A stretch of DNA of 64,000 nucleotides from Candidatus Woesearchaeota archaeon (GTDB taxonomy: Archaea > Nanobdellota > Nanobdellia > Woesearchaeales > SM23-78), in NCBI GenBank assembly GCA_016935175.1, contig JAFGRK010000019.1:6037-70036 (forward strand). Direction: 5' to 3'. Within the stretch, counting starts at the first letter, position 1. Each line of letters opens with the position of its first letter. The notes below the pieces were generated by a model. It made no database searches. It was not told the DNA's origin and saw only the letters and a program-made list of their open reading frames with translations. Below, in pieces: positions 202-35,814 of this stretch. Made by a program: the position numbers and the translations under genes.

Positions 202-951
202 GTGCTAGAAAGCAACATGCCAAGGAAGAAAGGAGCTAAGAAAAAGCAGGAAAAAAAGCAAGTGAAAGAGCCTCAGGCAGAGGCAGAGCTAAAGGAAAAG
301 CCTAAGCTAGAGGAATTCATAGAGCTTGAGGAGCTGAAAGAAGAAGTCAAGGAAGAGCAGAAAGAAAAAGAAGAGCTTCTAGTGCAAGATAAAAAAGAAG
401 AAGCCAAGGAAAAGGATTCTAAGAAGGCCGTAATCAATGCCATACTGGCAAGGGAGAGGGTGCTCACAGAAGCCACAGATGAAGCCAGGTCTTTGTACGA
501 CAAGAGCGCCTATGGACAGGTGCTTGATGACGGAAGAGTGCAGCTAGCCCTTCCAGAAGCGCTATACCTGCTTGAAAAAGGAAAAATACAATTGCTAGAG
601 GGCAAGAAAAAGAAGATTACAAAAGAAGAGTTCATTGCCAAGGCAAGAAAAGTAGAGCCTAACTTCTGGATAAGGTACTGCGTGTTCAAGGACATGAGGA
701 ACAGGGGCTACATCATCAAGACAGCGCTTAAGTTCGGGGCAGACTTCAGGGTTTATGACAGGGGAGTCAAGCCAGGGGAAGACCATGCAAGATGGATAAT
801 CTTCCCAGTACACGAAGGAGAGACTTTGACGTGGTACGAATTCGCAGCCAAGAACAGAGTAGCCCATAGCACCAAGAAAAGGCTTATGATGGGAATAGTT
901 GATGACGAAGGAGATGTCACTTACTACGAGATTAAGTGGATGAGACCCTGA
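202..951 (+). CDS. endA: tRNA-splicing endonuclease, short (alpha4-like) form with K/E-rich N-terminal tail
   Basis: The C-terminal half has the EndA catalytic-domain pattern (RNRGY, KFGADFRVY, HARWIIFPV, AHSTKK). The first ~75 aa are Lys/Glu low complexity. Confidence 0.85.
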   Translation: MLESNMPRKKGAKKKQEKKQVKEPQAEAELKEKPKLEEFIELEELKEEVKEEQKEKEELLVQDKKEEAKEKDSKKAVINAILARERVLTEATDEARSLYDKSAYGQVLDDGRVQLALPEALYLLEKGKIQLLEGKKKKITKEEFIAKARKVEPNFWIRYCVFKDMRNRGYIIKTALKFGADFRVYDRGVKPGEDHARWIIFPVHEGETLTWYEFAAKNRVAHSTKKRLMMGIVDDEGDVTYYEIKWMRP

Positions 952-12878: not shown

Positions 12879-13093
12879 ACAAGGAGGTTAGCATTTATCA
12901 TTTAAATCTTTATCGGGTTAGTCATCAGGGGGCTAAGCTCACAAAGTGTGCGCATGTATTCCTTTAAAGGAACACTCAAAAATCTTAAAGGTTTTTGTTG
13001 CCGCCTGCTTTTGAGATCTTTTCGTGCTAAAAGGTCACACTGGACATGTTGCCGTAAGCCTTATAAACAAGTTATGTGTTTGTTCGTATTACT

Positions 13094-13945
13094 ATGATCA
13101 GCGTTAGCCTGCTCTCCAGCTATGATTATTGCCCTAGGAAGCTTTTTCTTGAGCAGGTGCTAAAGCTCATAGTCATACCCAGGGAATCTGTTGTCAAGGG
13201 CAGCATCAGGCATGAGGTGCAGGACAGAATCAGCAAGGCAGAGGAGAGTATTGTCAAGAGCATAAAGTCAGAGCAGAGCTACAAGGAGCTGTTGGAGAAG
13301 TACAAGAAGCTTCATTCTGATCTCTTGAACCAGAGCATCATCAAGAACAAGAGCAAGCTGGGTGAGATAAAGGTCTCATTGGCTGAGTTCTTCAAGGAAT
13401 CATGGCCTACAGTGCTTGAGGAGAGCAAAGACCGGGCCTTGAATGTGCATAAATTCATCCAGTCCAACAAGGTGTTTGGTGATGAACTCTGGAGAAGCCT
13501 TAGCCCTAAGATTGAGACAGAGTATTATGTTGCCTCAGAGGAGCTCCAGCTCAAGGGAGTGATTGATAGGCTAGAGGTCTATGATAACAAGTTCGTAAGG
13601 GAGGTTGTGCCTTATGAGCTTAAGACTGGCAGCGTCCCAAGGGAAGGGGTTTGGCCTGGTCATAAGGTCCAGGTAGGCGCCTATGTCATGCTCTTAGAGA
13701 AGAACAAGATGTTTGTGAGAGAGGCTTTTGTCAAGTACCTGGATATAAGCGAGGCAAGGCCTGTGATGATGAACCCTTTCCTTGAGAAGAAAGTGCTTGA
13801 GGCAAGGGATGCTGTTCTTAAGCTGTTCCAGGGAAAAGAAATACCTTGCATATGCGAGAACTCTAAGAAATGCTCTTCCTGCAGCCTGAAAGAGCAATGC
13901 TGGAATGAAAAGTTTATAAAAGAGAGATTATCCCTGCTTTCTTGA
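13094..13945 (+). CDS. Stand-alone Cas4-like PD-(D/E)xK nuclease with Cys cluster (DUF83-like)
   Basis: An N-terminal Cys (YDYCPRKLF) plus a C-terminal C-x-C..C..C..C cluster (CICENSKKCSSCSLKEQC), together with an internal D...ELK nuclease motif. ATG 13094 sits ~28 nt after the ccttataaac TATA. Confidence 0.65.
   Translation: MISVSLLSSYDYCPRKLFLEQVLKLIVIPRESVVKGSIRHEVQDRISKAEESIVKSIKSEQSYKELLEKYKKLHSDLLNQSIIKNKSKLGEIKVSLAEFFKESWPTVLEESKDRALNVHKFIQSNKVFGDELWRSLSPKIETEYYVASEELQLKGVIDRLEVYDNKFVREVVPYELKTGSVPREGVWPGHKVQVGAYVMLLEKNKMFVREAFVKYLDISEARPVMMNPFLEKKVLEARDAVLKLFQGKEIPCICENSKKCSSCSLKEQCWNEKFIKERLSLLS
13913..13922 (+). promoter_or_regulatory. TATA box for the tRNA-Val gene, embedded in the 3' end of the preceding CDS
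   Basis: TTTATAAAAG lies 30 nt upstream of tRNA position 1. Confidence 0.4.
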
Positions 13946-20818: not shown

Positions 20819-23197
20819 GTGAAAACGATGAATGAGCGCATAAAAAAATTAAGGCAGCAAAGCCTTGAGGCAAAGCCTCATATTGACCTTGAAAGGGCTG
20901 TGCTTATGACAGATTTCTATGAGAACCATAACAACCAAACCTTGTCTGCCCCTGTAAAAAGGGCCCTTGCCTTCAAGTATGTGCTTGACAACAAGGCAAT
21001 CTGCATAAATGAGGACGATCTGATAGTTGGAGAAAGGGGCTCTGCACCCAAAGCGACCCCAACTTATCCTGAGCTAACAACTCACACTGTGCAAGATTTT
21101 GAGATTCTTAACTCAAGGGAAAAAATACCGTTTGCAGTGAGTGAGGAAACAAAGAAAATACAATTAGAGAAGATTATTCCCTTTTGGCAAGGCCAAAGCA
21201 TGAGAGACAAGATATTCAATGAGATGGGACAGGACTGGAAAAATGCTTATGAGGCAGGCATATTCACAGAGTTCATGGAGCAGCGAGCACCAGGGCATAC
21301 TGTGCTTGACGATAAGATCTACAAGAAAGGCATGCTTGATTTCAAAGAGGATATAGCAAAGAGCCTGAGCAGACTAGATTTTGAAAAAGACCCTGATGCT
21401 TACAAGAAAAAAGAAGAGCTAAAAGCAATGGCTATAGCTGCAGATGCAGTTATTAGCTATGCAGCAAGGCATGCAGAGAAGGCAAAGGAATTGCTACAAT
21501 CAGAGCAGAAGCCCAAGAGAAGGCAAGAGCTTGAAAAGATAATAGAGACTGCCACTAATGTGCCTGCCCATGCACCGAGGGATTTCCAAGAGGCTCTCCA
21601 GTATTATTGGTTTGTGCACCTGGGTGTCATTACTGAGCTTAACACCTGGGACTCATTCAACCCTGGCAGATTAGACCAACACCTTTATCCTTTTTACAAG
21701 AAAGGATTAGAAGATGGCACCTTGACCAAGGACAATGCCAAGGAGCTGCTCCAGGCTTTCTGGGTGAAGTTCAACAACCAGCCAGCCCCTCCAAAAGTAG
21801 GGGTTACTGCTGAGGAGAGCGGCACCTACACTGACTTTTGCCTGATAAATACCGGAGGAGTAAAGGCTGATGGCAGTGATGCAGTGAACGAACTATCGTA
21901 CATGATACTCGATGTTATACAGGAGATGAGGCTGCTCCAGCCTAGCTCAATGGTGCAGATAAGCAAGAAAACCCCTCAAAACTTTCTTATGCGAGCACTG
22001 GATATTGTGAAGACAGGCTATGGCCAGCCTTCCATATTCAACACTGACGAACTAGTGCAGGAGATGCTGCGCGTAGGAAAAAAACCAGAAGATGCAAGAA
22101 ACGGCGGCTCCAGCGGCTGCGTGGAGACTGGGGCATTTGGCAAGGAAGCCTACATCCTGACTGGCTACTTTAACCTGCCTAAGATTCTTGAGATAACCCT
22201 TAACAACGGAATTGACCCTAACACTAGAAAAAAGATTGGCATTGAGACAGGCAACCCCGAGAAGTTCAAGAGCTTTGACGAGCTTTTGCAAGCCTACACT
22301 TATCAGATAAGGCATTTTACAGATATAAAGATTAAAGGAAGCAACATCATTGAGAAGCTTTTCGCAGATTACATGCCAACGCCAATGATGTCCTTGCTCA
22401 TTGATGATTGCATAGCCACTGGCAAGGATTACCATGCAGGAGGAGCCAGGTACAACACATCATATATCCAAGGGGTAGGGATTGGCAGCGCAACAGACTC
22501 ATTATCCTCAATAAAGTACAATGTATTTGATGAGGCAACCAAGACTTTGAGCATGCAAGAGATGATGAATGCCCTAAAGGCTAATTTCAGGGATAATGAG
22601 CAGGTACGGGAGCAATTCATCAACAAGACACCAAAATACGGCAATGATGATGACTATGCCGATAACATGATGCGCCAGTTGTTTGAAGCCTATTTCAGTG
22701 CAGTTGATGGCAGGCCTAACACTAGGGGAGGCAACTATCGCATCAATCTCTTGCCTACGACTGTGCATGTGTATTTCGGAAAGGTGACTGGAGCGCTTCC
22801 TGATGGCAGGAAGGCTTATGAGCCCTTGTCAGAAGGAGTGTCACCTGTGCAAGGAGCAGACAGGAAAGGCCCTACTGCGGTGCTTAAGTCAGTTGCCAAG
22901 ATGGACCATGTGCGCACAGGAGGAACCCTGCTCAACCAGAAATTCACACCTAGTATGCTGAGCGACCAGGCTGGCGTGAAAGGGCTTGCAGCCCTGGTAA
23001 GAGGTTACTTTGCCATGGACGGCCACCACATCCAGTTCAATGTGGTGGATGCAGACACCCTAAGGGATGCCAAGGCGCACCCTGAGCAGCACAGGGACTT
23101 GATAGTGAGGGTGGCTGGCTACAGTGATTATTTCTGCGACCTGGGCGAGAAGCTGCAGGACGAGATAATCAAGAGGACAGAGCACAGGGAATACTAA
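20819..23197 (+). CDS. Glycyl-radical enzyme, PFL2/glycerol-dehydratase-like family
   Basis: It has the C-terminal glycyl-radical motif LIVRVAGYSDYF and a single active-site Cys in the SSGCVETG context (GCVE type rather than the PFL CC type). Confidence 0.9.
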   Translation: MKTMNERIKKLRQQSLEAKPHIDLERAVLMTDFYENHNNQTLSAPVKRALAFKYVLDNKAICINEDDLIVGERGSAPKATPTYPELTTHTVQDFEILNSREKIPFAVSEETKKIQLEKIIPFWQGQSMRDKIFNEMGQDWKNAYEAGIFTEFMEQRAPGHTVLDDKIYKKGMLDFKEDIAKSLSRLDFEKDPDAYKKKEELKAMAIAADAVISYAARHAEKAKELLQSEQKPKRRQELEKIIETATNVPAHAPRDFQEALQYYWFVHLGVITELNTWDSFNPGRLDQHLYPFYKKGLEDGTLTKDNAKELLQAFWVKFNNQPAPPKVGVTAEESGTYTDFCLINTGGVKADGSDAVNELSYMILDVIQEMRLLQPSSMVQISKKTPQNFLMRALDIVKTGYGQPSIFNTDELVQEMLRVGKKPEDARNGGSSGCVETGAFGKEAYILTGYFNLPKILEITLNNGIDPNTRKKIGIETGNPEKFKSFDELLQAYTYQIRHFTDIKIKGSNIIEKLFADYMPTPMMSLLIDDCIATGKDYHAGGARYNTSYIQGVGIGSATDSLSSIKYNVFDEATKTLSMQEMMNALKANFRDNEQVREQFINKTPKYGNDDDYADNMMRQLFEAYFSAVDGRPNTRGGNYRINLLPTTVHVYFGKVTGALPDGRKAYEPLSEGVSPVQGADRKGPTAVLKSVAKMDHVRTGGTLLNQKFTPSMLSDQAGVKGLAALVRGYFAMDGHHIQFNVVDADTLRDAKAHPEQHRDLIVRVAGYSDYFCDLGEKLQDEIIKRTEHREY

Positions 23198-24299: not shown

Positions 24300-24668
24300 T
24301 TATCTCAAGTACCATGGCTGGGCATAATTATTAGTATAGGTTTGAGGTGTGTAAGAGAATGCGAAACCCCTATAATCATTAGGGCAGCCAAACCAAGAGG
24401 TACAGCTGGTTCTAAATGAAAAGGATTTTCCTGAGTAAGGTGAAGCATAAGGATTATAGCTGTTATAGCCGTAGTTGTAGTTGAAAACTGATGGTTCAGG
24501 ATAGGATGGGTGATTATGTATATATACTAGGTATTCATTGCCAAAGAACCTGGCTGTTGAGAAAAGCCCGAGAAAAACAATGGTAACAAATAGGGCTAGC
24601 CATTGGGCTTGCTGCCTAGCTGGATTACCGACAAGTTTGCGGTTTATCATATTCTTTGCCAAATTCAT
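24300..24668 (-). CDS. Small membrane-anchored Tyr/Asn/Pro/Ser-rich protein
   Basis: It has one hydrophobic helix (WLALFVTIVFLGLF) and then a low-complexity tail (YNYGYNSYNPYASPYSG). The start lies within an 18-nt tandem duplication, so it could be ATG 24668 or ATG 24650. Confidence 0.5.
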   Translation of the reverse strand: MNLAKNMINRKLVGNPARQQAQWLALFVTIVFLGLFSTARFFGNEYLVYIHNHPSYPEPSVFNYNYGYNSYNPYASPYSGKSFSFRTSCTSWFGCPNDYRGFAFSYTPQTYTNNYAQPWYLR

Positions 24669-24683
24669 ATTCTTTGCCAAATC
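24648..24683. repeat. 18-nt tandem duplication (CATATTCTTTGCCAAATT/C x2) spanning the start of the 24300 gene
   Basis: Read directly from the sequence. It creates the duplicated N-terminal peptide (A)KNM-NLAKNM. Confidence 0.8.
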
Positions 24684-24717
24684 AAATTAAAAAAATAATT
24701 TAGAGCCAGGTTAATGC

Positions 24718-25113
24718 TTACAAGATGCCCCTGTAGCCGTAGTTGTAGCTTGGGTACCTGTAACTGGAGCTGTATGAGCTTCCCCCATAGTAGCTGCCTG
24801 TGTAGCTGCCTGTGTATCCCCAAGTTCCGCATGAGCCGCAAGATGACACATAGTAAGTGGGTGGCCTTGTGCTTAAGCAGGGCTGCTGGTAATAGTTAGC
24901 CCTTAAGGGTGTTGAGACGTAGCTTAGGCTTTGCCCGAACCATCCTCCTATCCTTGCTGGCTGCTGGTAGCTATAGGTTGTTGCGCAGTTTCCTGTCCAT
25001 CCGCAGCCATAACCATAGCTTGAGTAGCTAGAGGTATATGCTGAAGCCAGGCTAGTGCCCATCAAGACTCCTAGAACTACTAAGCCAAAAAATAGTGCTT
25101 TTTTGTTCTTCAT
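24718..25113 (-). CDS. Small secreted Tyr/Ser/Gly-rich, Cys-containing protein
   Basis: It has a Sec-type signal (MKNKKALFFGLVVLGVLMGTSLASA) and an SD GGAGGG ~10 nt upstream. The mature part has about 21 Tyr in ~106 residues by hand count. Confidence 0.6.
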   Translation of the reverse strand: MKNKKALFFGLVVLGVLMGTSLASAYTSSYSSYGYGCGWTGNCATTYSYQQPARIGGWFGQSLSYVSTPLRANYYQQPCLSTRPPTYYVSSCGSCGTWGYTGSYTGSYYGGSSYSSSYRYPSYNYGYRGIL

Positions 25114-25267
25114 TTTCCTTATCCCTCCAAAATTTAGTCTAAGACTAATTTGCTAATACTAATTAAAGTTAAAGTATTAGTACCGATTAGTAAATACAGC
25201 CAATTTATAAAGATTTCGCTCTTAACCACGCAATAGTGGTAAAGATGTTTTCTGAAGGAAACCGGTG

Positions 25268-26308
25268 CTAGATATAACCCTGGATTAGAAGAGGCACTTC
25301 CAAGAACTCAGCATACCTATACCTAAGTTTAATGTTAATCATGTCCTCATACACCCTTATGGTTGATGGTGAAGTCTTAGTGACAAAGCAGCTAAGCGTG
25401 ACAGGAGAGCCTCCGTACATCCTTAAAATGCCTGAAGAGCCGCCCGTGAACCCGAGACCAGAGGTAGAAGAGGTTTGGGTTGCGAACCTAGGGCAGTTTA
25501 TCTCATAATCCCCTTCCTGGGCAGGGGTGAGAGAGACCTCAATCCTATAAGCATCAGGATTCCTCTCAGTAGGATCACATGCTGATAAAAGGTTGCTGGT
25601 CTCTGAAGGCCTGAGAAAAAAAATCCCTCCACCAACATTCTCAATCAAGATGTTAAGCCTGATTGTATTATCGCTAGCCAGGTCTTCCCAGACGCCAGTT
25701 ATCTGGATGGGCGCGCCGCTGGTGCCTAAGGGCTTATAGCCTCTTATCTCGCAAATGGTTGCATCTACAGAGCTCTCAATCAAGTCATTTTTCATGCAGA
25801 ACTTGACATTGGCCTTGGTCTCATAGTCATAGCATACTTCGGTCCTGATGTTAAGAGCCAGATTATCTGCAACATCTGGCTTGTAAGCAAGGTTGTCGAA
25901 TGAGATGTAGGCTATCTCCCCGGGTATCATTGAGCCATCATAATTTCTCATGGCTGACTGCAAAGGCTCTTGCAGGGTCTTGGCAGCAGTCTCGGGCGTC
26001 AAGCCAAAATTGCTATGCATAATCCCGACAAGCCTTACCAGCACAAAAGGATTATCAGTGCCTGGCCCAACATCCATTTCGCCAGCATTCTCCAAAGAGA
26101 CAACAAAAGAGAAAGGAGTTATGCCCCTATCCTGGACTACTGAAGGAGGAGCTCCTGGAAGCACAGTCACCCTTAAGCCTTCATTCCCACCTAGAAAACC
26201 CTCTAGCCGCATGAACACAGGCTTGCCAGAAGAGCAAGCAGGCATGAGCAATAGGCTGCAAAATAATCCGAAAGCTAGGATTGATGGAAGAAAAGACTTA
26301 TTGAGCAT
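25268..26308 (-). CDS. Lipobox-signal secreted protein, surface-cluster paralogue F
   Basis: It has a signal plus LLMPAC lipobox-like site, shares conserved blocks with 26374..27360, and has an SD AGAGGT upstream. Confidence 0.65.
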   Translation of the reverse strand: MLNKSFLPSILAFGLFCSLLLMPACSSGKPVFMRLEGFLGGNEGLRVTVLPGAPPSVVQDRGITPFSFVVSLENAGEMDVGPGTDNPFVLVRLVGIMHSNFGLTPETAAKTLQEPLQSAMRNYDGSMIPGEIAYISFDNLAYKPDVADNLALNIRTEVCYDYETKANVKFCMKNDLIESSVDATICEIRGYKPLGTSGAPIQITGVWEDLASDNTIRLNILIENVGGGIFFLRPSETSNLLSACDPTERNPDAYRIEVSLTPAQEGDYEINCPRFATQTSSTSGLGFTGGSSGILRMYGGSPVTLSCFVTKTSPSTIRVYEDMINIKLRYRYAEFLEVPLLIQGYI

Positions 26309-26373
26309 TTATTAACCTCTTTAAAAAAATTAAAAACAAAAATAAAAAAACAAAAATGTATTGAGCGATTCTC

Positions 26374-27360
26374 TTATTCAGGCATGTCCTGTATTATAAT
26401 CGGAGTCTCAATGAACTGGCCATACCTGTACCTAAGCCTGATGTTGAGCAGGTCCTGGAAAATCCTGCCTGCGCTAGGCCTGGTCCTTTCTATTGTGCAG
26501 CTGATGGTTGTCGGCGCCCCTTGGTAGAGTTTCACTCTGCCAGCATTGCTTCCTCCGAACCTGCCGCAAGAGATTGTCAAGCCATCATCTCCCTGGAACT
26601 GAAGCACTTCAACATCCACGTTGTACTTGTTGATATTTCTCATGCTAAAGTCACAGTCCTCGCCAGCATCCCTGCCGAAGAACTCTCCAATGCCTATGTG
26701 CTCAATCATGAAGTTAATCTGGATCTTGTTAGAGCCCATGGGGTTCTCTGTGACCTTGGTGACGTGCAATGGCCCTCCACTGTTCTGGACATACTTCTCA
26801 CCCGATAGTGTGCAGATGCTAGTATCCTGCACGCTCTCAAGCACATCGTCCTTTATGCAGACTATTGCTGTTGCCATGTTCTCATAGTCATAGCACACAT
26901 CCGCCCTTATGGTGAATTGGGTATTGCCAAAAATATCAGGAACATAGCTTAAAGGCTCAAACACAATAGAGGTTAGCTCCCCTGGGAATATGGTGTCGTC
27001 AAAGTTCCTCTTTGAGCCTTGCAATGGGCTTTCAAGCATCTGCATTGCGCTGTCATCTGTGAGTCCGAACTGGACTGGGTTGATGCCTACCAGCCTTGCC
27101 ATGACATAAGGGTTATCAGTTCCTGGTCCTACAGCGACCTCTCCCTGGTTCTCAATCATTATGCCCACGCTAAAAGGGTATGAGTTACCATCGAATACCA
27201 CTGGCGGGGGCATGCCTTCAATGAGGTATGTGTTGAGCCCTGTTGGGCCTCCGACAAACCTGGGTGCTTCATTGCCAGTGCCTACGCCTTCACAACCTGT
27301 CAATAGAAGAGCTGCTGCTATTGCTACCAATCCAAATAAAAACAATTTGTTGCTTATCAT
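26374..27360 (-). CDS. Lipobox-signal secreted protein, surface-cluster paralogue E
   Basis: A strong SD (AGGAGGA) lies 9-10 nt upstream of ATG 27360. It has a signal plus LLLTGC site. It shares VGPGTDNPxV..RLVGI, VCYDYE and LRYRY blocks with F. Confidence 0.65.
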   Translation of the reverse strand: MISNKLFLFGLVAIAAALLLTGCEGVGTGNEAPRFVGGPTGLNTYLIEGMPPPVVFDGNSYPFSVGIMIENQGEVAVGPGTDNPYVMARLVGINPVQFGLTDDSAMQMLESPLQGSKRNFDDTIFPGELTSIVFEPLSYVPDIFGNTQFTIRADVCYDYENMATAIVCIKDDVLESVQDTSICTLSGEKYVQNSGGPLHVTKVTENPMGSNKIQINFMIEHIGIGEFFGRDAGEDCDFSMRNINKYNVDVEVLQFQGDDGLTISCGRFGGSNAGRVKLYQGAPTTISCTIERTRPSAGRIFQDLLNIRLRYRYGQFIETPIIIQDMPE

Positions 27361-27522
27361 GTTATCAATCCTCCTATTTATTTCCATTTATTTTACTTGT
27401 AGTATTTATATTTTATTTATTTGTACGCATGAAACAGCTTTTCCAGCCAGTTAGGGCATATATTTTGACATCAGTAGCCATTAGCCATGTTCAGCCATAT
27501 TCATTATGGCTCTAACTCATAT

Positions 27523-28836
27523 TCATATAGCCCTCTTTATCAACACATTCCTTTCCATAGTCTTGGAATAGCCATACCAGAGCTCGACCACTAAAGGAGT
27601 CAGGTAGGCTGACCTTAAGCCTGAATAGGGTATAAGGTATGAGCAGGTGATGATGCCTGAGCCTGTCTTTGGGTCAAGCCTTACAAAGTCATTAGGAGTG
27701 CAGTCAAGCCTTTGCAGGTCACCAGAGACTCTCACATCACCGACATATACTATGTTCTTGTCTTCAGCAGTTACCCTGCCGGGGAAGTAGGGGCTGCACA
27801 TCTCTAGCTTTCCAGGGTCATACACATCCCCTCCGCCAACATTCTTGATGTGGATGTCAAACCTTGCCTCCCTGGGAGTGTTCTCCTGGTAAATATAGGT
27901 CACGGCAACTGGCGCTCCTTGCCCTTTAGTGCCTGTGTATTTTTGCGGATAGCAAACTTTCCTGTCATCTGAGTAAGGCACAGGGTCAATGCATACCAAG
28001 GGGGCGGCATAAGTAGCATATAAGTAACAGTTGGTTATTAGGAAAGTCTGGTAGGCATAGTCAAGCCCTGGAGGCCAAGTTACTATGTTACCCTCGAAAT
28101 TGATGTAGTCAAGGTCTCCTCCTGGGAACTCATAAGTATCCCCTTCAAGCAAGTACTCGACTCCGAAATTCCTTGTGAAATCAATTCCCTGGAAAAGTGC
28201 TATCAGCAGCCTGCCGTGATTAGCATATTCTATATCAATTCCAGGATTGTCAAAACTAATGCTGAACTGGGTCTGGTCTCCTGAAGTCTGTCTGTAATAG
28301 ATATCTGTCCCTCCAAGAAGCCTGGTGAGGTCCAAAGCACCTGAATAAGCCCCAGTGGAGCTGAAAAGGTCCCTTATGCCCACTTCAAAAGTTCCTGAGT
28401 CCCCCACACCTAGGAAAAAGTCCTCGCATCGAAGAGTTCCTCCGAACTCCCCGAAGCCTATGTTGCCTATGTTCAATATGCATGCCCTTCCGCTGCTCCT
28501 TAAGGGATTGATCCCCTGGAATTCAATCATAGTGGGGTCATAGCCTGATAGAAACAATGCTCCTCTAGCCCATGATGAGCCTACATTGGCAACTTCCACA
28601 TTCACATCAAATGTGTTGTCCTGGGCATCTCCATAATAATACATCTTGTAAGGGGGCATCCCTGTCATGATTGCCATCTCCACCCCCCTGAACCCTTGGT
28701 AGTACTTATTATCCTCAAACCGCATCATGCTTTGGTCATCCCTAATGACCTTGTTGCAGGCTGATAGCAAGAAAACCAAGGCTAAGCACAGTAGGCCGAT
28801 GCCAAGCATACCTCTTTTTTTATTTTTAATACCCAT
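27523..28836 (-). CDS. Lipobox-signal secreted protein, surface-cluster paralogue D
   Basis: ATG 28836 is preceded by its own TATA (28861-28871, minus-strand sense). It has a signal plus FLLSAC site and shares blocks with C (YY.G..G.EM, QGAPVA.T, F.IH..N.G.G.V, CTPN). Confidence 0.65.
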   Translation of the reverse strand: MGIKNKKRGMLGIGLLCLALVFLLSACNKVIRDDQSMMRFEDNKYYQGFRGVEMAIMTGMPPYKMYYYGDAQDNTFDVNVEVANVGSSWARGALFLSGYDPTMIEFQGINPLRSSGRACILNIGNIGFGEFGGTLRCEDFFLGVGDSGTFEVGIRDLFSSTGAYSGALDLTRLLGGTDIYYRQTSGDQTQFSISFDNPGIDIEYANHGRLLIALFQGIDFTRNFGVEYLLEGDTYEFPGGDLDYINFEGNIVTWPPGLDYAYQTFLITNCYLYATYAAPLVCIDPVPYSDDRKVCYPQKYTGTKGQGAPVAVTYIYQENTPREARFDIHIKNVGGGDVYDPGKLEMCSPYFPGRVTAEDKNIVYVGDVRVSGDLQRLDCTPNDFVRLDPKTGSGIITCSYLIPYSGLRSAYLTPLVVELWYGYSKTMERNVLIKRAI

Positions 28837-28981
28837 GCTTAAGCCTTCCTTGTCAGTAATAGTATATAAAGCTTTCTTAAAATCTTGATAATGTATTAAC
28901 AATAATATATGCTATGCCCATATCGATTATTACATCAATTCACCAACCCCATCCAACCATACGTTATTTATCAATCGATAT

Positions 28982-30544
28982 TCATCCTAATATGGTTGAT
29001 GATGTGGATGTTGAAGTTGGACAGTTAGTGCTAGGGGTTGAACATGCATCTTTTGTATCATATACTTGTTTCGTTATAGGGCAGCAGAACTTGCCGCTCT
29101 CCATTAATACATAGTTATTAGGATCTGTGCCTGTTCCACAAGCGCACGTCCTGGTGGCCTCATAGCATCTTGTGCATTTAGGATAGCATTTGCCATCAGC
29201 AGGGTTGCGTATCTCATTGGACTTGCATTCTATCATGCAGCAATAGCTTGCGCCAGGGCAATAGCCTGCAAAAGGCACGCACAAGCCATCAGGGTAAAGC
29301 TTTGAGCATGTGTCAAAGCTGCACTGGCAGCTAAAGCCAATCTGGAAGTTGATGGTCTTGGAATTAGGGGCGTCAGGCTGGCACCCTGGCCCTCCTTGAT
29401 TGGATGCGCAATAATTACACCTGATCACTCCTGGCGAAACCTCATAAGGCAGTATAGAACTATTATCATATAATATTTCACCATAGGGGTTAAGCCTTTT
29501 GATGTCAATCCTCTTAGAAATCGAAGTGAGGTATATGTATGAAAGGGTTATTGTGAGGGGGGTTTGGTAGTTCTGGTAGCCCATTATCAATCCTTCATCA
29601 GTGACCTGGCACCTGGTAAAGCCTTCATTATTATAAAGCCTTATAGGGTTAGGGGTGCATTCAAGCCATCTGTCGTTAGAAAGGATTGCGTCTACCCTAA
29701 CGGTGTTAAAATCTTCCCTGTAAAGGTCGTGGAAAGAGCATACACGGTCCATCTCTGCAGGGTTATCATAAGGAGTCAGTACTGTGCCTGAGCCCTTGTT
29801 CTGCAAGTGAATAGTAAAGACCGGCCTTACCATATTGTTGCCAACAGGATGGTTCTCTACCTCAACAAGGGTTATAGCCACAGGAGCCCCTTGGTCTGAA
29901 AAGCTAAGGTCGTTCTGGGTGCATATTTGAGTCCTTTGGTTCTCACCATAAATGTTCAAGTCAACACACACTATCTGGGAAAGGGTAGTAGTATAAGGAT
30001 AGCATAAGGTAGATGATATCTGTGTGAAAGGCATCTCCCTCTGGCCCATGACACTCTTAGCCCTGAAATTAGGGAATGACAAGAAACTCTCTGTTCCTGA
30101 AGGGCTGTATCTTGACTTGCCCCTTAGCTGTATTCCCTTGAGCACCATGCTATTCCTAGTCACTGTAACTCCCGAGCCATTCTGTATGTCAAACAGCTCA
30201 ATGTAAAAAGGGTCAAAGCTGAATGACAGTATGCCGTACTTATCATCAATAACATCAAAGGCTCCCTTGTTCTCAACATAGACAGTAACTGGGAAAGTAG
30301 CTTCCTCATACACCTCTTTTGGAGGGCTGGTCTCGAGGAACATCATCTCCATGCCTTTAATGCCGACATAATAATTCACTTCCTTAGGCTGTTGCTGAAA
30401 ATTGCAGGAAGAAGCAGTTGTGAACAATAAGATTATTATGAATATTAAAATTATGCTGAAAGGCTGAAAATTATTGTGCTGCTGATTAAATCGATTGGCA
30501 AATTGGTTGGCAGGTGTTTTGGTTTTTTGGTTATTCATCGTCAT
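28982..30544 (-). CDS. Lipobox-signal secreted protein, surface-cluster paralogue C, with C-terminal Cys-rich module and S/T tail
   Basis: It has a signal anchor plus FTTASSC site and a core paralogous to D. The last ~145 aa contain about 20 Cys and end in STPSTNCPTSTSTSSTILG. Its start overlaps the stop of the upstream gene by 4 nt. Confidence 0.65.
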   Translation of the reverse strand: MTMNNQKTKTPANQFANRFNQQHNNFQPFSIILIFIIILLFTTASSCNFQQQPKEVNYYVGIKGMEMMFLETSPPKEVYEEATFPVTVYVENKGAFDVIDDKYGILSFSFDPFYIELFDIQNGSGVTVTRNSMVLKGIQLRGKSRYSPSGTESFLSFPNFRAKSVMGQREMPFTQISSTLCYPYTTTLSQIVCVDLNIYGENQRTQICTQNDLSFSDQGAPVAITLVEVENHPVGNNMVRPVFTIHLQNKGSGTVLTPYDNPAEMDRVCSFHDLYREDFNTVRVDAILSNDRWLECTPNPIRLYNNEGFTRCQVTDEGLIMGYQNYQTPLTITLSYIYLTSISKRIDIKRLNPYGEILYDNSSILPYEVSPGVIRCNYCASNQGGPGCQPDAPNSKTINFQIGFSCQCSFDTCSKLYPDGLCVPFAGYCPGASYCCMIECKSNEIRNPADGKCYPKCTRCYEATRTCACGTGTDPNNYVLMESGKFCCPITKQVYDTKDACSTPSTNCPTSTSTSSTILG

Positions 30545-32514
30545 TCCCTTACCATAATGGATTTTCTCTTCTCCATCTCATAATCATACTTAGCTATTGC
30601 CACAAAAGTCCTTTCTACTTTCTGGGCGCCCCTAAGCAAGGCAGCAGGGTCTTTTATGCGCAGCCTACAAGTTATTGACTGGAATCCCTGCCTGACATCC
30701 CCTAGCTCTGTCTTAAGGAACTTGTAAGTGTCAACCCCGTTTTCAGACTCGTCCGGAGCCTTCTCAGTCACAGGATACCATCGGTCACATTTGACTAGCT
30801 GGAAATCATCTGGGACTAGTATCATGAACTCATTAACAGTCCTTGGGTAGCCATCAGTCCATATGTTATCTATAGTCACTCCCAGGACAGGCTCCCTTGT
30901 ATTGTACCTGGTATCAATCCCTATAGGCAAGTCTACCTGGGCAGACATGCCTAGCATTATTGGTCCCGGAGTATAGACTGAGCGTGGAAGCGAAGGGATC
31001 TTGAGCTCTGAATTGATGTTCTTGCCTTGCGTCTCCATGGAGTGTTTGGTTTCTAGGTCGACAAAGGTGTAAGTCACATAAGCCCAAGTCTCAAAGTTGA
31101 ACTTGACACCTATACGGGCAGAGTAGGTTCCTTTTTCAAGTCCTGTAAATGTGCATGAGAAAGATGTGAGCTCGCTGCCTAGCAGGCTAAAAGCAGGAGG
31201 CTGAGCCACGCCAGGCCCCACCTTATCTATTACGCAGGTAGGCTGAATATTGACTTGTTCCACAAAGCTCTTACCCCTAACATCAGCCCAAAGAATGGCG
31301 GGGTAGTCTTTGTAGAAATATTTTTCAGCAGCATACACATTGGCAAGGTACAGCCCAACAGGCTCCTCATCATTTCTTCCCTCTATCTCACCCATATAAT
31401 AGCCAATGGAATTATTGTAGAATGCATACTGCGTAGGGTCTGAAACTCCCCTGATGTACTTCCAGAAGTCAGTGCCTATTTCCTTGGTCTTGTCAATGAG
31501 ATAGGTAAACACAGTGCCGAACTCCATGTTCTCCACTCTCCCCCCTAGGAATGAAAAATAAGAGGGAGTTAGCTTCAAGCCCACTCCAAATATGAATACG
31601 AACAGCAAGAATATTATCCAAAAATTAATGTAGCTATGGACAAACTTGTAATCTGCCTTGAACCCTATGTAGAGCGGCCAGATGGGAAGGATAGCCAATA
31701 AAAAAGTCACCCAGTTGAACAAGGTCGTGCCAGCAACTATCTCAATGTCTGGGATGGCGTAAAGCAAGGTCGGCACTGCAATATAAAAAAGCGATATTAG
31801 TATGAATAGTATTATCTGTCTTGGGGAAACCAGATGCCCTTCTTCCTTAGAAAAGAATATCAAAGCCAAAACAGCAAGCAACAAGTACATTATTATTGAA
31901 ATATAGAAATAGGATGTCCTGTTCATCCTTATGATGACAACATCAACTATTTGTATGCAGACCGCTACCCAGAAGAGCATCTTAAGAGAGCCTGAAGTGC
32001 TGGAACCAGAATCAGAGCCAGAGTCCTTTGATGATGAAATTTTTGACTTAACCACGTTTTTCGCCTTTCTTCCTGCGTTAGCAGCCCCGGCAGCCAAGCC
32101 TGTCATGAGGCCTGCACCTGCCACTGCAGCAGTCTTCGCAGCATTGGCTGATGTCCTGGCAGCCCTTGCAGCCCCTCTACTAGCAGCAGCCCATCTTCTT
32201 CTGGTTGCCTCAGCATCTGCTGCGCTTGAAGCATCCGGTGTTGCTGGCGGATTAGTTGGAGGAGGCTGAGTAGGAGCTGATGGTGCTGGGCTTGGGTTTG
32301 ATGGAGGGGATGATGGGCCTGAACTTTTAGTTTCTTTTTCCCCTTCAATGTATTTTTTTAATCTCTCTTTATACTTATTGGATATACCAGCCATTTCTGT
32401 TTCAGCTGTCTTTGCCACTCCAGAAGTCGTGGCTGTAACTTCCTTTGCTGCCGCCTTTCCTAACAAAGATTTGCCAGCATTGGCTGCTGCTCCCATAGGA
32501 ATTCCAGGGCTCAT
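30541..32514 (-). CDS. Polytopic membrane protein with Ala/Pro/Ser-rich N-terminus and large C-terminal ectodomain (surface cluster B)
   Basis: About 175 aa of low complexity are followed by a block of roughly six hydrophobic helices and then a ~300 aa Cys-containing soluble domain. An SD-like GAGGAA lies upstream. Confidence 0.65.
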   Translation of the reverse strand: MSPGIPMGAAANAGKSLLGKAAAKEVTATTSGVAKTAETEMAGISNKYKERLKKYIEGEKETKSSGPSSPPSNPSPAPSAPTQPPPTNPPATPDASSAADAEATRRRWAAASRGAARAARTSANAAKTAAVAGAGLMTGLAAGAANAGRKAKNVVKSKISSSKDSGSDSGSSTSGSLKMLFWVAVCIQIVDVVIIRMNRTSYFYISIIMYLLLAVLALIFFSKEEGHLVSPRQIILFILISLFYIAVPTLLYAIPDIEIVAGTTLFNWVTFLLAILPIWPLYIGFKADYKFVHSYINFWIIFLLFVFIFGVGLKLTPSYFSFLGGRVENMEFGTVFTYLIDKTKEIGTDFWKYIRGVSDPTQYAFYNNSIGYYMGEIEGRNDEEPVGLYLANVYAAEKYFYKDYPAILWADVRGKSFVEQVNIQPTCVIDKVGPGVAQPPAFSLLGSELTSFSCTFTGLEKGTYSARIGVKFNFETWAYVTYTFVDLETKHSMETQGKNINSELKIPSLPRSVYTPGPIMLGMSAQVDLPIGIDTRYNTREPVLGVTIDNIWTDGYPRTVNEFMILVPDDFQLVKCDRWYPVTEKAPDESENGVDTYKFLKTELGDVRQGFQSITCRLRIKDPAALLRGAQKVERTFVAIAKYDYEMEKRKSIMVRE

Positions 32515-32569
32515 TATCAGATTCCTCTTCTAAATCCTCTTTTTTAACAATCAAGAAGCCAACTCGTCT

Positions 32570-33763
32570 TTAGACCACGTCAACTCTTAGCTCAACCACA
32601 TCGATTGGGTCTGGTCTGGGTGTTATCTTGATTGAGTTAGGGCCTGCTGTGACGTACTCGGGATTTATCACAGTCTGGTAAACTATGTCCTGGGTTTCAA
32701 AGTAGCTCTTAAAACCGTTCACTTCCATTATGCCCCGTTTTAGGTTAGTGGAATCAGCAAACCTTAAGCCAAAGACAAGGGCTCTTTGTCCGTAGTAGAG
32801 TGCTTGGTAAAGGGTTGGCTGAATGGTGAAGTAAAACACTGGCTGCTCAGACTCCTTCAGATAAGTGGTCAGCTTAGGCCTGTCAAGAAGCAATGAGCCT
32901 GAGCTGGTGGTTGCAACAAGGGAGTTGTCCCCTATTCTTAGGAACTCCTTGCTCACCTCAACAGAGGTCTTGATGCCGCAGTCAGGATAGCTGGTGTAGA
33001 TGGGCCTGTTGTTGATGAGTATCTGTACCAGCCCTTCTTCTCTTGGAGGGCAGTCAGGCAAGAATTCCAGGACAGCCCTGCTCATGGTCTGGTATTCTAC
33101 GTCCCCAATTGAGAAGTGCTGCTCTGAAAAAGCCCCTGAATAGTCAGTTATCTTGGCAGATATGAGGATATTTTCAAGCATGTACTCGTTTATCCTCCAG
33201 AAAGCTGCTCCTGCATCTGACACCTCAAAGACCAGGCTGTTCTTGTCAGTAAGGTATTCTCTTGGCAAGTCTATGGGGTTTGGGCTTTGCTGAGTTACTT
33301 CCCCCTCGAACAGCTTGTAGTTGTTTAGCATTATGATTAGGTTGCCTGAGTGCTTCCTTACATTATAGGACAGTTTAACATCATTCATTGTCTGTGCGTC
33401 ATAAAAGAATATCATCTCTTCTGTCTTGTCCCCGAAGGCAGAGTTCTTCACATATAATGAGGATGTCCTTTTTATTTCTCCAGCATTGGTGACTGTGAAA
33501 ACAATGAATGAGGGCATGGTATGCTCTACGCTGTCCCCTCCTTCAGGGTATATTCTTCCTGGCGTAGTGGAAAGCAATATGCTCTTTACTGTTCCTGTGC
33601 CTCCGCCACTGCCTCCGCCGCCGTTTGGCTGCTCATCAAGTAGTGCAGCCCTGTCTTCTGGCGAGAGGAACAAGATGTAGAATACGATGAGCACTGCAAT
33701 AAGGATTACAGTTATTGCCGCGTTGGTGGCTGACTGGCCGAGCTTAGATTTCCATCTAGTCAT
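32570..33763 (-). CDS. Signal-anchored (possibly class III / pilin-like signal) secreted protein (surface cluster A)
   Basis: From ATG 33763 the N-terminus reads MTRWKSKLGQSATNAAITVILIAVLIVFYILF, followed by a Gly-rich linker and a ~330 aa beta-rich domain. A TATA lies 27 nt upstream, so the transcript is probably leaderless. Confidence 0.6.
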   Translation of the reverse strand: MTRWKSKLGQSATNAAITVILIAVLIVFYILFLSPEDRAALLDEQPNGGGGSGGGTGTVKSILLSTTPGRIYPEGGDSVEHTMPSFIVFTVTNAGEIKRTSSLYVKNSAFGDKTEEMIFFYDAQTMNDVKLSYNVRKHSGNLIIMLNNYKLFEGEVTQQSPNPIDLPREYLTDKNSLVFEVSDAGAAFWRINEYMLENILISAKITDYSGAFSEQHFSIGDVEYQTMSRAVLEFLPDCPPREEGLVQILINNRPIYTSYPDCGIKTSVEVSKEFLRIGDNSLVATTSSGSLLLDRPKLTTYLKESEQPVFYFTIQPTLYQALYYGQRALVFGLRFADSTNLKRGIMEVNGFKSYFETQDIVYQTVINPEYVTAGPNSIKITPRPDPIDVVELRVDVV

Positions 33764-33786
33764 AAGCAAGTTCTTAATAATCGAGG

Positions 33787-33794
33787 TATATAAA
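33787..33794. promoter_or_regulatory. TATA element in the divergent spacer, positioned for the minus-strand surface-cluster operon (pelota has its own TTATATA ~25 nt upstream of ATG 33875)
   Basis: TATATAAA (TTTATATA on the minus strand) lies ~27 nt from ATG 33763. A second TATA-like TTATATA sits at ~33846. Confidence 0.45.
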
Positions 33795-33874
33795 TTTATT
33801 GGTTTTGATTGAGGATGATGATAATGGCGCCATAAACAAAAAACATTATATACTAAAAAAACATTCTAGCAAAT

Positions 33875-34930
33875 ATGCAAATAATAAAGAAGAACCTGAA
33901 ACAGGGAGAAATCACTGTCAAAATTAACAATGCAGAGGACCTGTGGTCGTTGAACCAGCTCATTGAGACAGATGACATGATAAAGGGCAAGACTGAAAGG
34001 AAGATTAAGATTGGAAATGAGGATGAGCGCAAGCAAAGCGTTGTGAGAAAGACTGTTTATCTTGAGATAAAGGCAGAGAAAGTTGAGTTCCATAAGTACT
34101 CTGATAACCTAAGGGTGAACGGCGTGATTATTTCTGGGCCTGATGATGTGCCAAGAGGCAGCTACCACACCTTCAATGTTGAGCCTGGAAGCATAGTCAC
34201 CATTGTAAAGCAGGAGTGGCCTGGCTATCAGCTTGAAAAGCTAAAGGAAGCAACAGAGAGCATAGCAACCAAGATACTGCTAGTGATGATGGACAGGGAG
34301 GAGGCAATCTTCATGCTGCTTAAGAGCCAAGGCGGAGAGAAGCTTTCAAGCCTTAAAGGGAACGTGGCGAAGAAAGGCCTTGACGGCTCTGAAAAGAAGG
34401 ACTTTTACCAGGAGATAATTGAACAGATGAAAGAATATGATGAGAGGTTTGAGCTCCAGAACATCATAGTGGCAAGCCCTAGCTTCTGGAAAGAATACCT
34501 CATGAAGAGCATGCCTGATGAGCTCAAGAAAAAGATTACCCTTGCGACCTGCTCTGATGTTGGCGAGGCTGCTGTCAAGGAAGTGCTGCAAAGGCCTGAA
34601 CTGATGAGGGTGCTTGAGCATGACCGGGCAGCCAAAGAATCTTTGCTTGTTGAGGAAATCCTTAAGGCCATCTCAAAGGATGAAGCCTGCTATGGTTTGG
34701 CTGACTGCAAGGAAAAATCAGGGATAGGTGCTGTCAAGGAGCTCATTGTGAGCTATGAGTTCATGCAAAAGGCAAGGCAGGAGGGCAAGCACAGGGAATT
34801 AGAAGGCATAATGAGGCTTGTGGAGAGGATGAGCGGAAAAGTCCATATCCTGAGCACAGAAGAGGCTGAGAAAAAGCTGCTGGGCCTTGGCGGAATCGCA
34901 GGCATTTTAAGATGGCAAGCAACAAATTAG
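33875..34930 (+). CDS. pelA: Pelota / Dom34 mRNA surveillance protein
   Basis: It matches the archaeal Pelota pattern over the full length (N-terminal Sm-like domain, central eRF1-like domain, C-terminal GGIAGILR). Confidence 0.9.
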   Translation: MQIIKKNLKQGEITVKINNAEDLWSLNQLIETDDMIKGKTERKIKIGNEDERKQSVVRKTVYLEIKAEKVEFHKYSDNLRVNGVIISGPDDVPRGSYHTFNVEPGSIVTIVKQEWPGYQLEKLKEATESIATKILLVMMDREEAIFMLLKSQGGEKLSSLKGNVAKKGLDGSEKKDFYQEIIEQMKEYDERFELQNIIVASPSFWKEYLMKSMPDELKKKITLATCSDVGEAAVKEVLQRPELMRVLEHDRAAKESLLVEEILKAISKDEACYGLADCKEKSGIGAVKELIVSYEFMQKARQEGKHRELEGIMRLVERMSGKVHILSTEEAEKKLLGLGGIAGILRWQATN

Positions 34931-35814
34931 TTTCTGGCAAGCTGGATTCTGCATCCATAATAAGCTTGGTAAGGGATATACTCGCTAAAAAAGAGCTAAA
35001 AAACCTTGATGAAAGCTTTGTGGATGAAAAACTAAAGGCTTTTCTGGAAAAGAACAAGGAGCTGGAAAAAAAGATTAAGCTTGAGCTTGAAAGGAAATCA
35101 TACAATCAGTTCCAGCGCTCAAAAGAGCATGAGCTGATAATCAAAAAGATTAGGGCTGAGCTGCGAGAAATCTACGGGGTTTTCATACTTAATGATTACG
35201 CTAAAAGGCACGGGTTGCTAAAAAAGCTAGCGCAAGAGCCAAGCCTTGAAAACCACAACAAGGTTCTTGAGCTTCATAAGTCAAGCAAGGAAAGGCTGCC
35301 TTATTATGGTGTGGCTTATAAAAAAATTTTTGAGGTTACAGGCATCCCGAAAAAGATTGTTGACCTGGCCTGCGGGCTTAACCCCATAAGCTACCCTTAT
35401 ATTGCTGCTGCTATCAATGCAAATCCAGAATACCTTGCTTGTGACCTGGCAAAAAAAGACCTTGAGTTCATCCAGGAATACTTTAGGCTGCGCAAGATTA
35501 ATGGAAAAACCTCCAGGCTTGACTTGATAGGGGAAATAAGCAGGGTTCCCAGCATAACAAAAGGCAGCGATATAGTGTTCTTGTTCAAGACCTTGGATTC
35601 CTTGGAAAGCGTCAAGTGGAATATCAGCAAAGAGCTGCTTGAAAGCATTAGCTCAAAATTCATCGTGGTATCCTTTGCCACTAAGAGCATTGGGGGCAAA
35701 AAATCCATAAAAAAAGATAAAAGAGGCTGGTTTGAAAGGCTTTTGGCGCAAAAAAACCTTGTGTTCCGAACCTTTGAAATTCCTGGGGAAGTATTTTATA
35801 TCATACAAAGGTAA
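34912..35814 (+). CDS. FmrO-family 16S rRNA (guanine-N7)-methyltransferase homologue (ArmA/RmtB-like)
   Basis: Block-by-block resemblance to RmtB as I recall it: LELHKSSKERL vs LSLHASTKERL; IVDLACGLNPISY vs VLDIACGLNPLAL; DIVFLFKTLDSLE vs DLALIFKLLPLLE; IVVSFATKSIGGK vs MAVSFPTRSLGGR. Confidence 0.7.
   Translation: MASNKLVSGKLDSASIISLVRDILAKKELKNLDESFVDEKLKAFLEKNKELEKKIKLELERKSYNQFQRSKEHELIIKKIRAELREIYGVFILNDYAKRHGLLKKLAQEPSLENHNKVLELHKSSKERLPYYGVAYKKIFEVTGIPKKIVDLACGLNPISYPYIAAAINANPEYLACDLAKKDLEFIQEYFRLRKINGKTSRLDLIGEISRVPSITKGSDIVFLFKTLDSLESVKWNISKELLESISSKFIVVSFATKSIGGKKSIKKDKRGWFERLLAQKNLVFRTFEIPGEVFYIIQR

Follow-up and report, generated by a model that had tools for sequence, protein, structure and literature searches.

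A lineage-wide module of five exported or membrane-anchored proteins between pelota and RFC in Woesearchaeota

Introduction

Woesearchaeota are among the most widespread uncultured archaea, and both their partners and the molecules by which they make contact are obscure. A 64,000-nt stretch of DNA from one member of the group, Candidatus Woesearchaeota archaeon (assembly GCA_016935175.1, contig JAFGRK010000019.1, positions 6,037 to 70,036, forward strand), carries a cluster of eight genes, here called A to H in order of transcription, which an earlier note, made from the letters of the DNA alone, had described as a dedicated, uncharacterised cell-surface module. We refer to the whole stretch as the window and count positions within it. 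The cluster raises three questions: which of its genes form a conserved unit, what kinds of proteins they encode, and what those proteins might do at the surface of an archaeal cell.

The first two questions can be answered firmly: the cluster represents a lineage-wide module of five exported or membrane-anchored proteins that belong to new families with common folds. For the third, we infer a complex, its topology, its binding of glycan and a cell-wall target from the data below, and we consider the chances about even that the module is an outward-facing surface complex engaging bacterial cell-wall glycan. Literature searches on the cluster and on Woesearchaeota envelopes gave general statements only, and no published description of the five-gene module was found.

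Results

The conserved unit is five genes at a fixed genomic position

Open reading frame (ORF) calling in the window returned eight successive ORFs on the minus strand between 24300 and 33763, with intergenic spacers of 37-154 nt and a 4-nt overlap of B and C at 30541-30544, reproducing the layout given in the earlier note (Table 1). We then called ORFs in 84 loci from related genomes (L001-L084), of which 52 have enough sequence to be informative. A shorter order recurs among them: pelota (divergent), followed by A, B and three lipoprotein genes, P1, P2 and P3, that correspond to C, D and E of the window, followed by RFC (convergent). A, B and at least three of the paralogs are present in 47 of the 52 informative loci, and the distance from the end of P3 to RFC is 1-100 nt in most genomes. 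The block is strongly syntenic in relatives, and the position between RFC and pelota that had been noticed in the window is shared widely. F, a duplicate of E, is confined to the window's close clade (L003, L004, L007, L009, L012 and L013), and G and H are found only in that clade. Because the P3 duplication and the addition of G and H are restricted in this way, we define the conserved unit as A, B, C (P1), D (P2) and E (P3), five genes in all, and reject G and H as core parts. Of the eight-gene module first proposed, the eight ORFs are genuine and the unit of eight is not.

The families are broadly distributed within one lineage. Homologs of E (90), B (22) and A (65) are all unnamed, and all come from Woesearchaeota/Nanoarchaeota (DPANN) assemblies. 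A scan of one genome per species with the pattern YILFLPPxERxxLL, which corresponds to residues 28-42 of the window's A, retrieved an A-family gene in at least 137 species genomes, the complete genome GW2011_AR15 among them; the best 80 of the 137 genome matches were examined. A profile search with the B family gave 1016 representative clusters at 50% identity and was saturated by orthologs, so that its view ends with Woesearchaeota. Many public metagenome-assembled genomes (MAGs) with the block bear one of the titles 'uncultured Methanosarcinales archaeon', 'Methanobacteriota' and 'Euryarchaeota' (L010, L016, L022, L023, L030-L032 and others); these record titles look like taxonomic mislabelling of bins.

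The block is flanked by genes with housekeeping roles (RFC, pelota, an FmrO-type methyltransferase, TrmB, PheRS, SecY and ribosomal proteins), and the identity of A, D and E to their window counterparts parallels that of pelota. In L003, pelota is 62% identical and A, D and E are 65%, 70% and 67% identical; in distant genomes the values are ~45% for pelota versus ~30-35% for A, D and E. By this comparison the three proteins are under strong constraint for exported proteins, and the conservation of the cluster excludes its being junk. We also considered and rejected a viral or proviral origin: there were no notable fold matches in BFVD, the base composition of A-H is that of the flanking DNA, and the core-genome position is fixed.

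Five proteins of new families, three of them paralogs

None of A-H matches any family in Pfam, NCBIfam or PHROGs, and individual Pfam searches with 23-45 homologs per family for A, B and E gave no named family; the sole recurrent weak matches among these homologs were to lipoprotein-signal models. Profiles of the A, B and E families likewise found no match in a sequence search of the PDB. Since all family searches with the eight proteins and their homologs ended at noise, we rejected assignment to a named family, as the earlier note had been unable to make one by eye.

The paralogy of C to F that had been suspected from shared motifs is borne out. E and F are 39% identical (E-value 2e-86), C and D are 31% identical over 239 aa (E-value 6e-14), and weaker matches link C to F (E-value 2e-5) and D to E (E-value 3e-4). 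When ortholog groups P1, P2 and P3 were drawn from about 55 genomes and compared profile to profile, every pair was related with a probability of 100% (E-values of 1.8e-63 for P1 and P2, 2.9e-48 for P2 and P3, and 1.8e-41 for P1 and P3). Profile comparison gave no detectable relation of A or B to the lipoproteins or to one another, which rules out A as a relative of C to F. The B ectodomain had been suspected of being a further paralog from similar C-terminal strands; its profile-profile probability against E/F is 0.3%, and that of B against P1 is at best 6.8% (E-value 0.005), so this paralogy is unsupported.

C, D, E and F each have a hydrophobic signal that ends in a lipobox, as the earlier reading had it (FTTASSC, FLLSAC, LLLTGC and LLMPAC, respectively). 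Our criterion was that the hydrophobic region of the N-terminal signal ends in [LVI][ASTVI][GAS]C and that the Cys is conserved. The lipobox Cys, C32 in the E family, is invariant in 45 E/F-family sequences, and a lipobox-like motif is found in 52/55, 51/54 and 47/54 orthologs of the three groups. By motif, then, the four are bacterial-type lipobox lipoproteins, and their lipidation is predicted. DPANN are reported to have lipobox proteins, and lipidation enzymes of the AliA family, commonly (PMC12462473).

An AlphaFold2 model of E, built from 45 sequences, is confident (pLDDT 91.3, pTM 0.82) and has an N-terminal helix followed by two Ig-like beta-sandwich lobes joined by two strands of ~25 residues, which bear the conserved VCYDYE and RLRYRY motifs. 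The six conserved Cys of the ectodomain and the two N-x-G strand-turn motifs that had been pointed out in the window reappear in the family alignment, whose invariant positions include N80/G82/E83, G232/G234, C165, C177, C192, C274 and C297. Foldseek searches of the PDB with E returned only generic tandem Ig-like matches with TM-scores of at most 0.20 normalised to the length of E (integrin alpha leg domains, RbmA, transglutaminase C-terminal barrels, SdrG and a WxL-interacting protein), and a search of a viral fold library gave nothing informative. The sandwiches had been likened to CARDB domains. The Ig-like part of that claim holds at the level of the fold; CARDB (PF07705) itself is unmatched, with no hit in C, D, E or F at an E-value of 1 or below, nor among 45 E/F-family members at 0.1 or below. 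C, which contains 27 Cys in all, has an Ig-like core of two domains that is extended at the C-terminus by a Cys-rich part. Each of the three ortholog groups has a tight length distribution.

A WxL-interacting protein is among the weak matches of E (9i25, 9i1y). Csc/WxL complexes of Lactobacillales, thought to form a polysaccharide-binding surface assembly, also combine several paralogous secreted beta-sandwich proteins with a membrane-anchored partner. There is no detectable homology between them and the cluster, however (TM-score about 0.2). Csc proteins are bacterial and bound to peptidoglycan through WxL domains and LPXTG, and they lack the triad of lipobox paralogs and the five-helix membrane base that the cluster has.

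A polytopic base and a candidate glycan-binding protein

B starts with a low-complexity tail of ~175 aa that is rich in Ala, Pro and Ser and contains Lys and Arg. Hydropathy predicts five transmembrane (TM) helices after it, at residues 177-313, in place of the roughly six counted previously, and a highly conserved ectodomain of ~340 aa follows (for example, FNFETWAYVTYTFVD). The tail is presumably cytoplasmic, and because it contains Lys and Arg and the number of helices is odd, the positive-inside rule would place the C-terminal domain outside. The alignment revealed no conserved catalytic residues in the TM block. NCBI names one B homolog, P0104, a 7TMR-DISM receptor; we rejected this name, since the Pfam family has no match at an E-value of 0.1 or below in 23 B-family members and five TM helices are predicted rather than seven.

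A consists of a charged N-terminus, a hydrophobic helix (residues 9-32), a disordered Gly-rich linker and three beta jelly rolls, at about residues 61-207, 212-302 and 309-396 of an AlphaFold model (pLDDT 83.9, pTM 0.47). C238 and C262 are conserved in the alignment. Foldseek matched the model with probabilities of 0.99-1.00 to the jelly rolls of GH35/GH2 galactosidases, reelin repeats, BcsB and PNGase F; at the level of the modeled fold, A is a galactose-binding-domain-like or carbohydrate-binding module (CBM)-type jelly roll, and sugar binding would be its predicted role. BcsB of bacterial cellulose synthase, a recurrent match (probability about 1.0, TM-score at most 0.22), shares with A a single-pass anchor, tandem carbohydrate-binding jelly rolls and an adjacent polytopic membrane partner. 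Unlike A, BcsB is anchored C-terminally and has flavodoxin-like domains, and the cluster has no glycosyltransferase. Orthologs of A with 555-581 aa carry a Cys- and Asp-rich insertion of ~155-175 aa, with CPxxC and DKDCCF repeats, between jelly rolls 2 and 3 (L022, L032, L034, L039, L041, L050, L054, L056, L057, L060, L064, L068 and L082); one example that was scanned had no Pfam match.

The N-terminus of A raises the possibility of a type IV filament (TFF)-related structure, similar to a pilus or bindosome, in which A would be a subunit with a class III signal and the machinery would be encoded elsewhere. The window's A has a class-III-like K-L-G/Q-S-A site ahead of its helix, and a [KR][GA]Q-type site, 4-10 small or polar residues before the helix, is present in 47/83 orthologs, so that a class III (prepilin-like) signal peptide is putative in A; such peptides have [KR][GA] immediately ahead of a hydrophobic helix and are cut by peptidases of the PibD/EppA type. 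There is a precedent in Sulfolobus, whose bindosome consists of sugar-binding proteins that bear class III signals and depend on Bas/TFF proteins for assembly (bioRxiv 10.64898/2026.04.22.720090), and in one relative, L002, a T2SSE ATPase is encoded ~6 kb from the block. Like A, these bindosome proteins are large and globular and stay at the cell surface; the N-terminus of A would be prepilin-like, as theirs is, and A too is probably glycan-binding. They have a periplasmic-binding-protein fold, however, whereas A has a triple jelly roll. A TFF system is defined by an ATPase, a platform protein, substrates of class III signal peptidase and a prepilin peptidase (same preprint). In all 84 loci the cluster lacks an ATPase, a platform protein and a prepilin peptidase, and Pfam found none of these among 30 larger ORFs of the window. 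Only A has a class-III-like site, its motif is missing or atypical in more than 40% of orthologs and is separated from the helix by a polar stretch, and the other four proteins are anchored by a lipobox or TM helices. We rejected membership in a TFF system and consider a filament very improbable.

The outer end of the A helix carries a near-invariant YILFLPPxER among orthologs (YILFLSPEDR in the window), and the longer motif that it begins may be a site of contact with B or of processing.

Peptidoglycan hydrolases are fused to B and P1 in relatives

Among the best 150 of the 1016 B representatives, ~21 have at least 100 extra C-terminal residues. We scanned 20 of these, and 12 bear peptidoglycan hydrolase domains (Table 2); one more has a PKD domain. 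Those hydrolase-bearing representatives that come with source names are Ca. Woesearchaeota. In the species genomes, hydrolases are fused to B or P1 in eight of roughly 55-60 loci, and the SLT domains of L015, L016, L020, L029, L047 and L048 retain an intact Glu-Ser motif. These fusions, together with the avoidance of glycosylation sites described below, are new facts that go beyond the earlier reading.

Table 2. Peptidoglycan hydrolase domains joined to B and P1
Fusion	Found in	Remark
B, SLT	6 B representatives	
B, Amidase_2	3 B representatives	
B, NlpC/P60	2 B representatives	
B, Peptidase_M23	1 B representative	
B, Muramidase PF11860	1 B representative	within one of the Amidase_2 proteins
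B, any of the above	P0219, P0224, P0236, P0242, P0255, P0279, P0280, P0283, P0290, P0300, P0304, P0305	the hydrolase-bearing representatives
B, SLT	L016, L048	two copies in L048 by local profile
B, Glucosaminidase	L063	
B-type fragment, SLT	L081	local SLT profile only, without Pfam match
P1, SLT	L015, L029, L047	Pfam; L029 also has DUF2272
P1, SLT	L020	local SLT profile only

A profile built from the fused SLT sequences found no match outside cluster proteins in the 84 loci (~1.2 Mb) and none in the window, and Pfam and this local profile gave no peptidoglycan hydrolase domain in the window's A-H. The window's C nevertheless contains a Cys-rich module homologous to the linker that joins the P1 core to SLT in L015, L020 and L029, and has a second Cys-rich segment where these relatives have SLT. 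Short extensions of B in other genomes are FN3 domains. As six catalytic families occur on two subunits, several independent fusion events are implied, and such repeated fusion points to the C-termini of B and P1 as exposed ends at which modules are swapped.

Large extracellular murein-like transglycosylases have been described in Woese- and Pacearchaeota and read as a hint of bacterial hosts (PMC8204110; PMC10936187). Those of Castelle et al. 2021 (PMC8204110; fam00969, 'Module 98') resemble our fusions in lineage, SLT type and extracellular location, and have been read in the same way, as serving attachment to or degradation of bacterial walls. They are described as single, very large proteins (up to ~3000 aa), whereas our hydrolases extend B or P1 of a five-gene module, represent six catalytic families and are missing from most lineages, including the window. 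It is plausible that the five families described here are part of the lineage-specific, mostly unannotated module of that study.

The fusions could also be read as a sign of scavenging: the module might be a surface 'utilisome' that collects free cell-wall debris or glycans without cell-cell contact. A and the lipoproteins would catch the polymer, hydrolases that are attached or recruited would cleave it, and uptake would be left to separate transporters. The same fusion data apply, the lectin-like modules of A would suit such a role, and the closest analogies are multi-protein complexes for glycan capture. However, the conserved block has no permease, ABC transporter or binding protein, and lytic enzymes such as M23, NlpC/P60 and amidases are typically used against intact sacculi as well. 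We judge this explanation unlikely.

N-glycosylation sequons are nearly excluded from the lipoproteins

One preprint reports AglB-type oligosaccharyltransferases for the DPANN superphylum (bioRxiv 10.1101/2021.01.19.427365). We counted N-x-S/T sequons in orthologs across the loci and compared them with the numbers expected from shuffles of each protein (Table 3). The P2 orthologs have none at all, P3 and P1 are strongly depleted, and A has about half the expected number. No such depletion is seen in other exported proteins from these loci, taken as those that have a single hydrophobic segment at the N-terminus, and control patterns (S/T-x-N, Q-x-S/T and D-x-S/T) gave ratios of 0.74 to 1.57 in the lipoprotein groups and A. 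In the window itself, A, D and E have no sequon, F has one, and B and C have two each.

Table 3. Sequons observed and expected in module proteins and controls
Protein group	Observed	Expected	Ratio
P2 (54 orthologs)	0	~125	0.0
P3	8	~118	0.07
P1	40	~137	0.29
A	137	~287	0.48
B ectodomain (last 330 aa)	93	125	0.74
Other same-locus proteins with one N-terminal hydrophobic segment	94	71	1.32
Same-locus cytoplasmic proteins	420	480	0.88

We read this depletion as independent evidence that the proteins are exported and as the mark of selection to keep them unglycosylated. Sequons may have been lost for tight packing, to avoid self-recognition by a lectin-like partner, or for steric slimness. Literature searches on sequon depletion in archaea gave general statements only.

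The same counts bear on whether the module is instead a general envelope scaffold, such as a canopy of the S-layer kind or the part that anchors it in the membrane and spaces a pseudo-periplasm. The core role would then be mechanical and not directed at a ligand, and the hydrolase, FN3, PKD and Cys-rich modules would ride along simply because B and P1 have exposed C-termini. Many archaeal S-layer proteins are built of Ig-like sandwiches, and the near-universal presence of the module, its fixed core-genome position and its pelota-like conservation would suit a scaffold, as would lipid and TM anchors, the acidity of the mature proteins (pI 4.5-5.4) and the tight lengths of the three paralogs, which fit a structural assembly of fixed stoichiometry. 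Archaeal S-layer proteins are, however, typically heavily N-glycosylated, and here sequons are almost forbidden. The module has five proteins, whereas S-layers usually have one or two (PMC5744192). No solved S-layer protein is among the top 50 Foldseek matches of E, and codon usage gives no sign of exceptional expression of the cluster, although the codon adaptation index is 0.72-0.82 across all genes and the genome has no usable codon bias, for which reason we dropped codon adaptation as a proxy of expression. Compared with known archaeal S-layer systems (lipid-anchored glycoproteins; SlaA/SlaB), the module thus shares sandwiches, anchors and lineage-wide presence and differs in its number of components, its extreme sequon avoidance and its lack of any sequence or fold match to solved S-layer proteins. 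With no family or PDB match and sequon ratios of 0.0-0.3 in the lipoproteins, we rejected membership among archaeal S-layer glycoproteins. These points argue against a classical S-layer, not against a scaffold as such, and we regard the scaffold as the main alternative, possible if doubtful.

Gene layout, expression signals and other features of the window

The sequence upstream of A contains a promoter-like element, AATAAATTTATATACC, in the 111-nt divergent spacer that A shares with pelota. Its TATA-like core, TTTATATA, lies at 33787-33794, ~25-30 nt before the ATG of A. The element probably acts as the promoter of A, and the short distance suggests a leaderless or short-leader transcript. 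A further TATA-like element precedes D, and GGAGG-type sites precede E, F and G, so that all the TATA and Shine-Dalgarno signals listed in the earlier note are present. The most likely start codons of D, E and H are the ATGs given in Table 1, that of E because AGGAGG falls within the longer ORF. A T8 run after H is common to H and the convergent RFC gene.

By hydropathy, A and C-H have one N-terminal hydrophobic segment each. G has a signal peptide ending in SLASA, a mature part rich in Tyr, Ser and Gly, and a TATA-like element of its own besides its GGAGG site; H has a hydrophobic anchor and a Tyr/Asn-rich tail. Both had been called Tyr-rich, which their compositions (16% and 11% Tyr, respectively) agree with.

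Elsewhere in the window, the glycyl-radical enzyme gene that adjoins RFC also has a PFL-like/Gly_radical (Pfam) counterpart in L003, a case of conserved synteny, and the FmrO-type methyltransferase gene, which overlaps the end of pelota by 19 nt, is kept beside pelota in many Woesearchaeota loci. A tRNA found by Rfam (42 bits) is unreported by ARAGORN, which suggests that it contains an intron; a tRNA-intron endonuclease gene is present as well. A Cas4-like gene is among the scanned ORFs, with no Cas family among the others; CRISPR arrays were not searched for.

Table 1. Coordinates of the cluster and of other features in the window
Feature	Position	Strand	Description
Promoter-like element	33781..33800	-	upstream of A; read from sequence
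A	32570..33763	-	ORF, 397 aa
B	30541..32514	-	ORF, 657 aa
C	28982..30544	-	P1-type lipoprotein; ORF, 520 aa
D	27523..28836	-	P2-type lipoprotein; 437 aa from ATG at 28836; ORF reaches TTG at 28902
E	26374..27360	-	P3-type lipoprotein; 328 aa from ATG at 27360; ORF reaches 27387
F	25268..26308	-	E duplicate; ORF, 346 aa
G	24718..25113	-	accessory; ORF, 131 aa
H	24300..24668	-	accessory; ~122 aa from ATG at 24668
tRNA	60395-60525	+	131 nt
tRNA-intron endonuclease gene	202-951		
Pyruvate formate-lyase-like glycyl-radical enzyme	20819-23197	+	792 aa
FmrO-type rRNA methyltransferase gene	34912-35814	+	
ORF without Pfam match	9990-11786	-	598 aa
ORF without Pfam match	960-2000	+	346 aa
Cas4/PD-(D/E)XK nuclease-like gene	13076-13945	+	

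Discussion

An uncharacterised cell-surface module, as the earlier note had supposed, remains the best description of this cluster: nothing in it confidently matches a characterised S-layer, pilus or transporter system, its lipoboxes are conserved and its block is syntenic. Conserved lipoboxes, TM predictions, conserved Cys pairs and sequon depletion together place the proteins outside the cytoplasm. For the outward-facing complex that would engage bacterial cell-wall glycan, we propose the following arrangement. B would span the membrane by its five helices, with the low-complexity tail on the cytoplasmic side and the conserved ectodomain facing out. A would be held by its N-terminal helix, possibly after cleavage of a class III signal, and would project three lectin-like jelly rolls on its flexible Gly linker. 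P1, P2 and P3 (C, D and E, plus F in the window) would be lipid-anchored, rigid, two-lobed Ig-like proteins that assemble with A and B into a hetero-oligomeric scaffold. The C-termini of B and P1 would be distal ends that display interchangeable modules: Cys-rich knots in the window, and FN3/PKD domains or murein hydrolases in other genomes. Such a complex could act as a contact platform that binds bacterial cell-wall glycan, with attached or recruited hydrolases digesting peptidoglycan locally for attachment to, or feeding on, bacteria, and the absence of sequons would keep packing or ligand-binding surfaces free of glycan.

Several points weigh against this proposal. Both the jelly roll and the Ig-like sandwich are generic folds, and we identified no site for sugar binding. 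The TM-scores of A and E to every PDB match are at most 0.23, which in the case of A we attribute to the flexible linkage of its three domains (pTM 0.47), and the predicted folds cover A and E, not B. Physical interaction among the five proteins is something that we infer only. The window's own cluster has no hydrolase domain, and as only about 8-13% of lineages have a fusion, a minority serves as the guide to function; the fusions may, moreover, exploit an abundant outward-facing anchor and be uninformative about the core role. Sequon depletion may have several causes. Finally, the cluster has no transporter or ATPase, and the window organism has no known host.

More specifically, the module might be a host-contact apparatus of Woesearchaeota, a surface machine not recognised before in archaea, that grips bacterial peptidoglycan and opens it with attached or recruited lysins. 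We offer this version tentatively and hold it to be somewhat doubtful. The present data do not separate the scavenging utilisome from the contact platform proposed above.

The block supplies five conserved and easily recognised marker genes for a surface structure of these archaea, each with a defined anchor, and peptidoglycan is a concrete biochemical lead for the contacts that Woesearchaeota make. The near-complete exclusion of sequons from an exported archaeal protein family is unusual in itself, and it could serve as a general signature of glycan-free interaction surfaces in archaea. If the host-contact apparatus is real, its reach into the wall would be provided by the glycan-free, rod-like triad of lipoproteins, and the order-wide conservation of the module would mean that this very large DPANN lineage has bacteria, not archaea, as its main partners or prey.

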